DNA from: an uncultured Methylomirabilota bacterium | GTDB taxonomy: Bacteria; Methylomirabilota; Methylomirabilia; Methylomirabilales; 2-02-FULL-66-22 | NCBI GenBank assembly: GCA_963845565.1 | Contig: CAWJSJ010000002.1 | Span: 64,001 to 128,000, forward strand | Length of the DNA: 64,000 nucleotides | Direction: 5' to 3' | Shown: positions 47,029 through 63,470 of the stretch, one piece after another | How the letters are laid out: every line of letters begins with the position of its first letter | Numbering within the stretch: the first letter of the stretch is position 1 | The notes under the pieces: model-generated | The model's input: only the letters and a program-made list of their open reading frames with translations | What the model was told of the DNA's origin: nothing | The model's database searches: none | Made by a program: the position numbers and the translations under genes

Positions 47029-47817
47029 TCATGCCAGCAGGCACCCGATCACGAAGACGATGAGGAGCGGGAGGATGGCGGCCACCGTCGCCACGCCCGT
47101 GGCCCCGGTCCCGAACTGGAACGGCAAGGAGGCGTACAGCCCGGTGGAAACGAGCACGCCGACCACCAGGGCGCCGACCCCGCCGATCCACATCAGGAGA
47201 ACGCCCATCCACGGCCGGGCGTTTCGCGAGATCTCGTCCGGCTCCATGATCTCGGTCCACAGGATGTTCCAGCGCCTGGCCCGCGGGACGAGCAACCGCA
47301 GCAAGAAGGGTCCGATGAGCGCCGCCGCCAGGAAGTTGTTCAGCGTGATGACCGGCCCCAGCACGCCGAACGGGACCAGGCCGAAGAGGTCCACGCCCCA
47401 GGAGATGATGGCGGCGCAGGAGGCCGATGCGAGGAACGCGAGCAGCAGGTATTCCGTGATCTGACGGCCGGTGCGCGCCTCCATGGGCTCTTTGCTGGAG
47501 AGCGGTCCCATCTTCCCGCACAGCTTGTACGCCACCAGCCCGTAGAAGAAGTTCCCGACGAAGCCGAAGATGCTCCCCAGGCCCAGCGTGCCGAAGAAGT
47601 CGCCGATGAGGTTGCCGAACGCTGCCCCCCAAGCCGCGGCGGGGCCGAAGAGAATGCTGAAGACGACGGGAACGACATTGGCCGGTCGGAGCTCGGTGAT
47701 GCCCGGGACGAGAGGGATGCCCTTCAACGGGATGAGAATGGCGGCGTAGACGCCCGCGGTCAGCGCCACCAGGACCACCATCTTCGTGTGACGCCACATC
47801 GTGACGACTTCACGCAT
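47029..47817 (-). CDS. ECF S component (QueT-like)
   Basis: ELRPANVVPVVFSILFGPAAAWGAAFGNLIGD; co-operonic with EcfA/T. Confidence 0.8.
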   Translation of the reverse strand: MREVVTMWRHTKMVVLVALTAGVYAAILIPLKGIPLVPGITELRPANVVPVVFSILFGPAAAWGAAFGNLIGDFFGTLGLGSIFGFVGNFFYGLVAYKLCGKMGPLSSKEPMEARTGRQITEYLLLAFLASASCAAIISWGVDLFGLVPFGVLGPVITLNNFLAAALIGPFLLRLLVPRARRWNILWTEIMEPDEISRNARPWMGVLLMWIGGVGALVVGVLVSTGLYASLPFQFGTGATGVATVAAILPLLIVFVIGCLLA

Positions 47818-47878
47818 CAGACGGCCCCCTTTTCGGTCGGCTCCCGCAAGCCGGCAGTGGATGTCCGAGAAGCACGGC

Positions 47879-47996
47879 GCGCGGTCCGAGCGCCCGCGGG
47901 GCGGCATGCGCGCGTTGGCGGGTAGGCTATCCAGACCCCTCGGGCATGTCAAGGTGAAAGACGCAATGGCTTTGTCCTTGCGCGGTCCGAGCGCCC
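47879..47996 (-). promoter_or_regulatory. Sigma70 promoter bracketed by a 17-bp direct repeat
   Basis: TTGACA(47952-47947)-N17-TAGCCT; GCGCGGTCCGAGCGCCC at 47879-47895 and 47980-47996. Confidence 0.6.
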
Positions 47997-48092
47997 ACGG
48001 ATACAATGCCGTAGTCGCCGGCCCGGCGGCGACACCCGCACGGCAAGGGGACGTGCAAGCCCCCGGGGATGCCATTGGAAGGAGACGCTTGC

Positions 48093-48506
48093 ATGGCGGA
48101 TTGCATATTCTGCAAGATCGTGGCGGGCGAACTGAAGGCCCACGTGGTGTACGAGAACGAGAGCGTCTTGGCGTTCCTGGACAACCATCCAGCCTCTCGC
48201 GGCCACGTGATGGTCGTCCCCAAGGTCCACGCCGAAAGCCTGGACCGCCTCGACGATCGGCAATTGGCTCCGCTCTTCTCCGGCGTCAAGACCGTGATGG
48301 GCCTCCTGGAGAAAGCGCTGAAGCCGGCCGGCCTGAATGTCGGCTGGAACCACGGCTGGGCGGCGGGCCAACGCGTCGCCCACCTGCACGTCCACATCAT
48401 CCCGCGCAACGCCGGTGACGGCGGCGGCGGGATCCAGTCCCTCATCCACAGCTTCGTTGCCGAGGACCTCGCCAGCGTGGCCGCGCAGATCAAAGCGGTG
48501 CGCTGA
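48093..48506 (+). CDS. HIT family hydrolase
   Basis: DCIFCKIV, GHVMVVPK, AGQRVAHLHVHIIPR histidine triad. Confidence 0.94.
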   Translation: MADCIFCKIVAGELKAHVVYENESVLAFLDNHPASRGHVMVVPKVHAESLDRLDDRQLAPLFSGVKTVMGLLEKALKPAGLNVGWNHGWAAGQRVAHLHVHIIPRNAGDGGGGIQSLIHSFVAEDLASVAAQIKAVR

Positions 48507-48681
48507 ACCCCGCGCCGGCTCCTTGCTTCCGTGTCCCCGAAAAAAGGGCACAGGGAACCGAAAGCGGCCCCTCAGAGTTTCAATTTACAGGATTCCGTTA
48601 ACGCCCTACCTTGATCCTGCGCCACCGGGGATGAAGGTGGTGGCTCGCCTCTTTGGGGGAATGCACATAGGGAGGGAGGAC

Positions 48682-49233
48682 ATGAGTACAACACAGCGGT
48701 CCATTCAGGGCACCCTCATCGGCCTCGTGGCGGTCTTGTTCCTTACCACGTCCGCCGCCGCTCTCGAGGTCGGCCAGAAGGCGCCCGAGTTCACGTTAGC
48801 GGACCCTGCCGGGAAACAGGTCAAGCTGTCCGATCTCACCGCCAAGGGTCCGGTGGTCATCTACACGTTCATCCAGGCGTTCACCGGCACCTGAACGCAG
48901 GAGATCCGGAGCTTCGACGCGGCCTTGCCGCAGTTCGAAGCCCTGAACGCCCAGGTCGTGGGCGTGAGCGCCGATCATGCTGCCACGCTGAAGGCCTTCA
49001 CGGAAGCCAACGGCGTCAAGCACCCGCTCCTCTCGGATTTCCGGCGCCAGATGCTCCCGGAATACGGCGCCATGGTGACCGACGAGAAGAGCCCGATCTA
49101 TCGGTACGCCAAGCGGGCCTTCTTCGTGATCGACCGGTCGGGAACCGTCCGGTTTATCAAGATCCACGACAACGCCCTCGACCTGCTCAAACCCGAGGAC
49201 CTGTTGAAGGCGTTGAAGGAGAGTGGCGCGTGA
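48682..49233 (+). CDS. Exported peroxiredoxin-like selenoprotein (Sec at codon 71)
   Basis: Signal peptide; QAFTGT-TGA(48892-48894)-TQEI in frame with VVGVSAD/LLSD/KRAFFVID; TGA at the peroxidatic TxxC position. Confidence 0.85.
48911..48941 (+). promoter_or_regulatory. Putative bacterial SECIS hairpin
   Basis: GCTTCGA-C-GCGGC-CTT-GCCGC-AGT-TCGAAGC, 16 nt after TGA. Confidence 0.65.
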
Positions 49234-49769
49234 AGACAACAGTAGTCGCGACGAGCCTCCTCATCGCGGCGCTCCTCGCGGCGCCCGCCTTTGGGGCCGG
49301 GCCGGACTTCGCCGGCATGCAGGTGCAGCCCTACGATCCTCCCAAAGCGGCTCCGGCTCTCGCCCTCCCGAGCCTCGACGGCAAGACGGTCCGCCTGGAG
49401 GATCTGAAGGGCAAGGTGGTGATGCTCGTTTTCTGGGCCACCTGGTGACCCGTCTGCCGGGAGGAGTTACCTTCCGTCAACAGGGCGTACGGCGAGTTCA
49501 GGGATAAGGGCCTCGAGGTCCTCCTGGTGGATTTCCGGGAGGACGCCGAGACGGTGAGGAAGGCTGTGCGCGACCGGGGCTACACCGCGCCGGTGCTGCT
49601 CGATCAGAGTGGCGACGTGACGGGAAGGGCGTACGGCGTGTGGGGGCCGCCCACCGTGTTCTTCGTGGACCGGAAGGGCCAGCTCCTGGGCCGCGCCGTC
49701 GGCCCCCGCGGCTGGGACAGCCCGGCCGCCAAGACGTTCCTGCGGGCCCTGCTGGAGCTGCCGGGATAG
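49230..49769 (+). CDS. Exported TlpA/ResA-like thioredoxin selenoprotein (UxxC)
   Basis: Signal peptide; FWATW-TGA(49446-49448)-PVCREELP in frame with YGVWGPPTVFFVD; GTGA overlap with upstream gene. Confidence 0.88.
49451..49487 (+). promoter_or_regulatory. Putative SECIS hairpin
   Basis: GGGAGG-AGTTA-CCTTCC apical stem with outer CGTCTG/CAGGGCG pairing. Confidence 0.5.
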
Positions 49770-62916: not shown

Positions 62917-63470
62917 ATGAAAACCACAGGGAAGGTATCTGTGGGGGGTGCTCCTCGGGGCGATCGTCGGTCTCATGTGTCGCCGGTTCCGCCAGCGCCC
63001 TCGAGGTGGGGCAGAAGGCGCCGGATTTCACGCTGACGGCGCCCGGCAACAAACAGGTCAAGCTGGCCGACCTGCTCGGCAAAGGTCCGGTGGTGCTCTA
63101 CACGTTCGTGGACGCGTTCGGCGCGGCCTGAACGGAGGAGATCAGCGGCTTCGAGGCGAGCCTTGCGCAGTTCGAAGCCGCCAACGCCCACGTCGTGGGC
63201 GTCAGCGCCGATCCCGTGGCCAAGTTAGACGATTTCACGAAGAAGAACCGCGTCAAGCACCTCCTCCTATCCGACGCCGATCGCAAGATGCTCCCGGCCT
63301 ACGGGGTGATGATGACCGACCAGAAGAGCCCCATGTACCGCCTCGCGAAGCGAGCATATTTCATCCTGGACCGTCAGGGCATCGTGCGCTTCGTGCGGGT
63401 CCAGGCCAACCCGCTCGACCTATTGAAAACCGAGGAGGTGTTGAAGGCGCTCAAGGGGTTAGGAGCGTAA
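62917..63470 (+). CDS. Second peroxiredoxin-like selenoprotein paralog; leader region carries two apparent frameshifts
   Basis: ALEVGQKAPDF...YTFVDAFGAA-TGA(63129-63131)-TEEI in frame with 63195-63470; hairpin 63147-63179; signal peptide split over three frames. Confidence 0.7.

Follow-up and report, generated by a model that had tools for sequence, protein, structure and literature searches.

The window analyzed here, a 64,000-nucleotide stretch of an uncultured Methylomirabilota genome, carries two overlapping genes whose products are almost certainly a pair of exported redox proteins containing selenium. The features of this unit, in window coordinates, are as follows.

48670..48679 (+): purine-rich ribosome-binding site of gene 1, read directly from the sequence
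48682..49233 (+): gene 1, an AhpE-like peroxiredoxin-fold selenoprotein, predicted to be exported; 183 aa with a single Sec71
48682..48762 (+): predicted Sec/SPI signal peptide of gene 1, residues 1-27, with Ala-x-Ala before LEVG
48892..48894 (+): in-frame TGA of gene 1, Sec71 at the peroxidatic position; codon 71, QAFTGT-U-TQE
48911..48941 (+): hairpin 3' of the gene 1 TGA, a putative atypical SECIS; loop CUU, 29 nt from the UGA
49216..49221 (+): Shine-Dalgarno-like AAGGAG of gene 2, within the last codons of gene 1, read directly
49230..49233 (+): GTGA overlap of the gene 2 start with the gene 1 TGA stop (49231-49233)
49230..49769 (+): gene 2, a TlpA/ResA-type thioredoxin-like selenoprotein, predicted to be exported; 179 aa, W-U-P-V-C
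49230..49298 (+): predicted signal peptide of gene 2, approximately residues 1-23, cleavage site approximate
49446..49448 (+): in-frame TGA of gene 2, Sec73 of UxxC; codon 73, FWATW-U-PVC
49458..49476 (+): canonical bacterial SECIS of gene 2; 7-bp stem, loop AGUUA, 16 nt from the UGA

Gene 1 starts with the ATG at 48682, while gene 2 starts with the GTG at 49230 and stops with the TAG at 49767-49769. Standard gene calling cuts the unit into four pieces and, as an earlier sequence-only reading had claimed, the halves of each gene are in frame over one TGA. The same reading's account of gene 1 (a Cys-free product of 183 aa, with the TGA in QAFTGT-U and a downstream KRAFFVID) and of gene 2 (a TGA within FWATW-U-PVC) was borne out by the sequence, and the GTGA overlap that it took to couple the two genes is present at 49230-49233. 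The gene 1 product contains 0 Cys, keeps Arg145, and has Ile64 where a conserved Pro is expected. A promoter and terminator scan around the pair returned no signal above chance. Contigs from RNA libraries span both TGAs, one of them runs over the junction, and the TGAs are unchanged among the matches listed; however, these contigs were dropped as evidence of expression because a depth of ~2 cannot show transcription.

Comparison with related loci makes it virtually certain that UGA71 and UGA73 each specify Sec. We assembled a pooled set of 36 loci, comprising 25 close genome-scan matches (from the best 80 of 512) and 11 further loci, in which the TGA was kept in 35/35 gene-1 loci and 29/29 gene-2 loci, counts that include the present gene and its paralogue. 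L037 ends before the TGA codon of gene 1, leaving 35 gene-1 loci scored, and L029, L031, L034, and L035 were excluded as duplicates of L089, L094, L103, and L107. When metagenomes were scanned with the TlpA as seed, a TGA was found in 80/80 matches (the best 80 of 521, with 67 distinct cores), as well as in 59/59 of the adjacent gene-1 copies that reach the codon. A search of the phylum found exactly one TGA in each of the 150 matches listed, of 162. The codon is maintained at 59-77% protein identity, and the differences flanking each TGA, on both sides, fall mainly at third codon positions. In a genome-wide coding-potential scan, the gene 1 TGA ranked first among 146 candidates.

The positions of the two codons within their domains point the same way. 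The Pfam PF00578 match runs across both TGAs; the TGA column of gene 1 corresponds to the peroxidatic Cys of the archaeal PrxQ structures 2ywn and 2cx3 (PDB), and that of gene 2 to the first Cys of WCxxC in the TlpA/ResA structures 3kcm and 4nmu. The expectation that homologues would show Cys/TGA pairs at the catalytic column also held at the protein level, where the full-length proteins P0124, P0125, and P0013 carry Cys at the TGA column of gene 1; these Cys members nest within the Sec clade (quick tree, clade support 99). Since TGA terminates 1093/1864 long ORFs in the genome, making it the commonest stop, and the sole tRNA with anticodon UCA is tRNA-Sec, a reassignment of UGA was excluded. 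The use of UGA as both Sec and stop is routine among Sec-using bacteria, and the proposal that both meanings coexist in this one mRNA is well supported.

The Sec machinery that the sequence-only reading proposed to look for in the genome was found, with one blemish. Here, selA and selD exceed their cut-offs, selD containing a TGA of its own, and tRNA-Sec lies 2.4 kb downstream of selB; selB itself (L171, G000:C4:5502-7391) has its C-terminal wing domain but is broken across frames, with three single-base insertions within ~300 bases relative to two intact relatives (the L175 row, a wrong stretch, was left out of this comparison). At least two of the insertions fall in short single-base runs, and all three are probably assembly errors. 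Among five close relatives, selB was intact in three, partial in one, and not found in one. More widely, selA was detected in 53/61 order-level genomes; it was not found in G007 (76% complete), though that genome has the gene pair. Conversely, two families (f4 and f7) have selA in 13/15 and 15/15 genomes and a gene-1 match in 0/15 and 0/20, so the pair does not simply accompany the use of Sec.

We then considered the hairpins that the sequence-only reading had placed just 3' of each TGA. The bSECIS model, as given in the accessible text of PMC13188914, has a loop of 3-9 nt, a stem of 4-16 bp, a G in the first two loop positions, a spacing of 16-37 nt, and an energy of at most -7.5 kcal/mol. 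The gene 2 hairpin agrees with this model in every respect (AGUUA loop, 7 bp, 16 nt, -11.2 kcal/mol). The gene 1 hairpin agrees in spacing, stem, and energy, but not in the G within the first two loop positions, as its best fold has the loop CUU; an alternative register with a G in the loop proved poor, at 66% paired, a figure valid for the upper helix only. The hairpin claim was thus right in full for gene 2, whereas for gene 1 it holds for a conserved hairpin without the loop G.

Conservation among relatives was the more informative measure. In gene 2, 29/29 loci have TTG or TTA for Leu+7 and CCT for Pro+8, codon choices that make up 10% and 6%, respectively, across the genome. The gene 2 stem is paired at 97.5%, compared to 64% (maximum 70%) under synonymous resampling, and two compensated pairs were seen among 15 sequences, all from the three more distant ones. 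However, synonymous resampling gave no sign of extra stability for the gene 2 segment (mean z -0.68; +1.19 for the present gene), so that the constraint is confined to the named stem. The gene 1 hairpin, on the other hand, exceeded synonymous resamples in stability in 35/35 loci (mean z -1.79), while three control segments did not (z +0.51, +0.11, and -0.31). Covariation in the gene 1 hairpin was not seen in the first 14 sequences but appeared with 35. Since the sequences are related and not independent, these locus counts are not to be read as probabilities. Plain folding energy was rejected as SECIS evidence, the shuffle z being significant for neither hairpin (gene 1, -1.72 and -1.92; gene 2, +0.72 and -1.01), and z-scores from hairpin-trimmed segments were inflated and set aside. 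The case for the hairpins as putative SECIS elements comes from comparison among relatives, not from folding energy.

Both proteins very probably reach the periplasm. The signal peptides that the sequence-only reading ascribed to both products were predicted here from hydropathy together with the -1/-3 rule, with a hydrophobic stretch preceding the gene 1 domain in 32/34 loci (one further locus lacked an anchor) and the gene 2 domain in 29/29. Ala occupies position -1 in 33/34 gene 1 loci. Neither a lipobox nor a Tat motif was found in gene 1 (34 loci) or gene 2 (29 loci), and the cytoplasmic homologues in the PDB begin to align at residue 27-28 of gene 1.

What kind of protein gene 1 encodes is less straightforward. 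The defining peroxiredoxin motif is Pxxx(T/S)xxC together with a distal Arg, of which the Pro and the Arg are called absolutely conserved (PMC4749874, PMC5302317), and the corresponding motif of AhpE is PxAF(T/S)xxC (PMC5302317). At the Pro position, the 35 loci of the gene-1 clade have Ile (33) or Val (2), so that Pro occurs in 0/35; it was likewise found in 0/59 gene-1 copies of the TlpA-seeded metagenome scan. The Thr position, Thr68 in this gene, is Thr in 25 of the 35 loci, with Gly, Ser, and Asn in three each. Arg145 and Glu74 are invariant in 14/14 sequences, and Arg145 aligns with the AKR of 2ywn, 3hjp, and 2cx3. A structure model (pLDDT 86) gave Bcp4 and AhpE as its top fold matches (TM about 0.76-0.78). 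Against NCBIfam models, gene 1 stayed below the cut-offs (NF040737 PrxU, 32.5 vs 270; NF045827 Prx-SUH, 45.8 vs 298).

Because the Pro is absent (0/35) and the Thr varies, we describe the predicted gene 1 product as AhpE-like and not as a canonical peroxiredoxin: it resembles a 1-Cys peroxiredoxin in fold and in most of the site but misses one feature of membership. The sequence-only reading had named it a Cys-free 1-Sec peroxiredoxin. The lack of Cys and the single Sec stand, as do the fold, Thr68, and Arg145, but that reading had relied on TxxC and the Arg only, and the Pro of Pxxx(T/S)xxC does not support the name, with Thr itself kept in 25/35. In a tree of 82 loci, a quick version with export scored by a crude hydropathy threshold, none of the 31 clade members had the Pro, nor did five other exported Sec forms, but six Anaerolineae Sec forms and 38/40 Cys forms did. 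An explanation in which Sec itself makes the Pro dispensable was rejected: since Cys members of the clade lack the Pro while cytoplasmic Sec forms keep it, the loss tracks export and not selenium.

Two further groups of Sec sequences were seen alongside the clade. More distant exported Sec genes with the peroxiredoxin fold, likewise Pro-less (L038, L110, L116, L129, and L150), reach other phyla, by their record labels Betaproteobacteria, Acidobacteriota, and Binatota. The Anaerolineae Sec peroxiredoxins (L122, L127, L128, L130, L132, and L133) keep the Pro and have a C-terminal extension of ~90 aa with several Cys. Separately, peroxiredoxin-like genes of verrucomicrobial origin (L141, L143, L147, L162, L163, and L164) place a TGA three codons before a Cys (UxxC).

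Gene 2 has a PF00578/PF08534 domain, W-[C/U]xxC, and a conserved Pro-Thr before the last strands; W72, U73, C76, P141, and T142 are invariant in 11/11 sequences. It stayed under the cut-offs of the ResA model NF002854 (100.4 vs 170) and the rhizobial TlpA model NF047696 (72.1 vs 230). At L260 and L264, a TlpA of the same clade follows an exported UxxC gene with an HMA (heavy-metal-binding) domain. There (L264:4-2025, and L260) a run of four genes, three of them apparent selenoproteins, encodes in order a UxxC Thioredoxin_3, a CcdA-like membrane protein, the exported HMA-domain UxxC protein, and the clade's UxxC TlpA. The run has the look of a full route for electrons across the membrane, ending at a metal-binding selenoprotein. 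Judged from the gene context at L264, the TlpA of gene 2 can have other clients.

We next assessed how tightly the two genes are linked. A TlpA gene stands behind gene 1 in 28/35 loci; the seven unpaired gene-1 loci include two at contig ends and five with other sequence downstream (≥1.4 kb, that is, at least this length). Where the genes are paired, they meet in ATGA or GTGA at 26/28 loci. Seen from the other side, gene 1 lies upstream of the TlpA in 66/80 TlpA loci (the best 80 of 521), the remainder comprising three with too little flank and 11 with another upstream gene. Pairing with a TlpA recurs in divergent exported Sec forms without the Pro, namely L038, with a CxxC TlpA downstream, and L110, with a UxxC TlpA upstream. 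No third gene conserved beyond the genus was found across the phylum-level loci, the only genus-level neighbors being HIT and transporter genes. In the window, the stretch 47029-48506 upstream of the pair holds a gene of the HIT family (PF01230) and one for a divergent membrane transporter, an arrangement seen in 9-10 loci, mostly of the same genus. Co-inheritance was also sought in the pairwise identities of the two proteins, a weak test in which they correlated only weakly (Spearman 0.27, 27 loci, the pairs being non-independent).

The gene-1 clade is widespread in the phylum, occurring in 141/251 genomes (matches at E 1e-45 or better); this count includes the unpublished genomes G075, G216, and G217, and several of the tallies given here include G028 or G055. 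The labels Methylomirabilota or Rokubacteria apply to 23/25 close genome-scan matches, and database entries for the pair are mostly C-terminal fragments of 100-113 aa. Taken together, the sequence comparisons describe a real, conserved, and mis-annotated unit of two predicted selenoproteins.

The genome holds further candidates. A paralogue of gene 1 (61% identical) lies in the window at 62917-63470 (+), with its TGA at 63129 in VDAFGAA-U, a TAA stop, and no TlpA behind; its signal-peptide region looks frameshifted, by assembly error or decay, because the nearest ATGs lie in another frame than the domain. One TGA is contained in 7/17 PF00578 matches in the genome. More in-frame TGAs at redox-type motifs were seen in AhpC-type genes (C2:2522158 and C2:1178315), in TlpA-like genes with UPHC (C2:1467704 and C4:236797), and at C2:743181, C2:1795860, C2:2494387, C5:201280, C1:128117, C4:52437, C1:375681, C1:455364, and C3:46281; for those outside PF00578, the family is what we presume it to be. 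Several of these TGAs have a loop with G first ~17 nt downstream.

Given these features, we propose that the translationally coupled pair acts as a peroxide-reducing relay of two Sec-exported selenoproteins in the cell envelope, a reading that we hold with slightly more belief than doubt, this estimate excluding the re-reduction step by CcdA. The relay is probably best regarded as suggested by the linkage and by the precedent of the Caulobacter ScsB-TlpA-PprX pathway, with the peroxidase activity putative. In the first step, the Sec71 selenolate, aided by Arg145, would attack a hydroperoxide and yield a selenenic acid, which we consider likely, an estimate lowered because the Pro is lost. As gene 1 has no resolving Cys, the oxidized Sec71 would then, with comparable likelihood, be attacked by Sec73 of the TlpA, either directly or after homodimer formation, and the mixed diselenide resolved by Cys76. 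Finally, it is reasonably likely that the selenenylsulfide of the TlpA would be re-reduced by a CcdA-type membrane protein with electrons from cytoplasmic thioredoxin. That the TlpA re-reduces the gene 1 product, as the sequence-only reading also had it, is something we infer from a linkage that is strong but not absolute.

The DsbD family is represented in the genome by one CcdA-type gene (252 aa), which adjoins a different, Cys-type TlpA; CcdA was found in 19/21 genomes of the genus. The clade's TlpA lies behind a CcdA-like gene in L264, an arrangement that supports CcdA as the donor. The genome also has two VKOR genes, while no match to DsbB was found in it. Several observations count against the relay. 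The resolution of a diselenide by a thiol is thermodynamically uphill, and the sole CcdA sits beside another TlpA. The Pro is absent, no NCBIfam cut-off was reached, and the gene 1 hairpin has no loop G. To these are added the selB insertions, the unlinked loci (5/35 and 11/80), and the weak correlation of identities.

Three other functional readings were weighed. It is possible, though unlikely, that both are co-expressed exported selenoproteins in which the TlpA serves as a general envelope reductase, for metal-binding proteins or apocytochromes, while the gene 1 product depends on small thiols or sulfide for its recycling. Such a division of labor would fit the 11/80 TlpA loci without gene 1, the L260 and L264 loci where the TlpA follows the exported HMA-domain UxxC gene, and the 5/35 loci, including the paralogue in the window, where gene 1 has no TlpA; AhpE, moreover, is recycled by mycothiol/Mrx-1 or H2S, according to the accessible part of PMC8113037. 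It fits poorly, however, with the overlapping junction in 26/28 pairs, with the lack of a third gene conserved across phylum-level loci, and with the recurrence of the pairing in divergent lineages (L038 and L110).

A rather improbable reading is that gene 1 encodes a selenoprotein with the peroxiredoxin fold for which peroxides have ceased to be the main substrates, its opened site taking another electrophile while still being recycled by the TlpA; candidates would be polysulfide or persulfide, peroxynitrite, or oxidized residues of envelope proteins. The loss of the Pro across the whole clade, Cys members included, would be expected on this account, as would the replacement of Thr by Gly, Asn, or Ala in some members, and the cytoplasmic Anaerolineae Sec peroxiredoxins keep the Pro in 6/6, so that the loss tracks export. 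Yet Arg145 and Glu74 are invariant in 14/14, Thr/Ser is still the majority, and the fold remains near AhpE and Bcp (TM about 0.76-0.78).

Very improbable is a reverse flow, in which peroxide oxidizes the gene 1 product, which in turn oxidizes the TlpA so that disulfides are introduced into exported proteins or a signal is relayed. Prx4/PDI in the endoplasmic reticulum offers a precedent for peroxide-driven oxidation in this direction, the unit encodes no membrane electron donor, and DsbB was not found in the genome; against this, the two VKOR genes provide an ordinary oxidative route, L264 shows the TlpA clade together with a CcdA-like gene, and CcdA occurs in 19/21 genus genomes. Lastly, that the TGAs are not Sec at all but nonsense mutations, sequencing errors, or UGA read as Trp or Gly is hardly credible: indel-like assembly errors do occur nearby (selB and the paralogue N-terminus) and the evidence on the two UGAs themselves comes from DNA, but the TGAs are conserved at 59-77% protein identity with coding-type substitution on both sides, clade members have Cys at the TGA column, and TGA is the commonest stop with tRNA-Sec the sole tRNA bearing a UCA anticodon.

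Returning to the relay of two selenoproteins, a bolder version would make gene 1 a separate, exported, Pro-less branch of the peroxiredoxin fold that is ancestrally Sec-based, relays electrons in the envelope by selenium throughout, forming an intermolecular diselenide with a Sec-TlpA dedicated to it, perhaps acts on a substrate other than H2O2, and has a SECIS class without loop G; a large uncultured phylum would then have in this pair a core redox module of its envelope that is annotated only as fragments. We offer this version tentatively and regard it as doubtful. Whichever reading holds, the pair is a natural test of whether the peroxiredoxin Pro is dispensable, with Sec and Cys versions in one clade, a test case for how a 1-Sec enzyme gets recycled in the envelope, and an instance of a putative SECIS without loop G beside a canonical one in a single mRNA.

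A literature search confined largely to open papers and their main texts found no description of the gene pair, and the family may be catalogued in supplements or subscription papers. The operon section of PMC13188914 lists Prx/SelW and Prx-like/AhpD pairs, not this pair, in its accessible text, which also reports a Methylomirabilota MAG with 63 selenoprotein genes; the accessible part of the GOS paper gives one Prx/Prx-like 2 neighbor pair (PMC2398784), and a term search of the main text of BSepDB (PMC13326102) gave no match.

Among known systems, the closest in organization is the ScsB-TlpA-PprX pathway for envelope peroxide reduction in Caulobacter crescentus (Cho et al. 2012; PMC3322552). 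As far as the accessible text of that paper goes, the two have in common a peroxiredoxin-type protein and a TlpA, both of them exported (by prediction in the present case), fed in Caulobacter by a DsbD-family membrane protein. PprX is, however, a Cys-based, PrxQ-type protein that keeps PxxxTxxC, whereas gene 1 has Sec, no Cys, and no Pro; moreover, both catalytic residues are Sec here, the genes overlap, and the sole DsbD-family match is CcdA-type. Catalogued Sec peroxiredoxins, such as PrxU of Eubacterium acidaminophilum, are described in the accessible portion of PMC13188914 as Prx (PF00578) with TxxU, and share with gene 1 the peroxidatic Sec, the TxxU in this gene, and PF00578; PxxxTxxU is there called highly conserved, while gene 1 lacks the Pro, is predicted to be exported, and is free of Cys. 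With the 1-Cys AhpE of Mycobacterium tuberculosis, gene 1 shares the fold, AF(T/S)xx[C/U], a Glu three residues after the catalytic site, and the lack of a resolving Cys, but differs in its Sec, its predicted signal peptide, its missing Pro, an identity of about 31%, and its proposed reductant, the TlpA instead of mycothiol/mycoredoxin. The Cys-free 1-Sec MsrA of Clostridium oremlandii, reduced by the glutaredoxin Grx1 that was studied as a U13C form (PMC4479559), likewise combines a Cys-free selenoenzyme with a thioredoxin-fold reductant natively carrying Sec, as judged from the U13C name and a cited title; it is glutathione-linked and of another enzyme class, and the accessible text mentions no signal peptide or envelope location. 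Gene 2 is like the UxxC selenoproteins listed as Prx-like thiol:disulfide oxidoreductases or redoxins (PF00578, PF08534; PMC13188914 and PMC2398784, in their accessible parts) in domain, UxxC, and canonical SECIS, and only its partner and its conserved operon position are new. With both selenoprotein families and a sulfur relay already known, the novelty lies not in the type of system but in how its parts are combined: two exported Sec proteins form one coupled unit, one of them with a Cys-free and Pro-less peroxiredoxin fold, and the clade is present in 141/251 genomes of the phylum.
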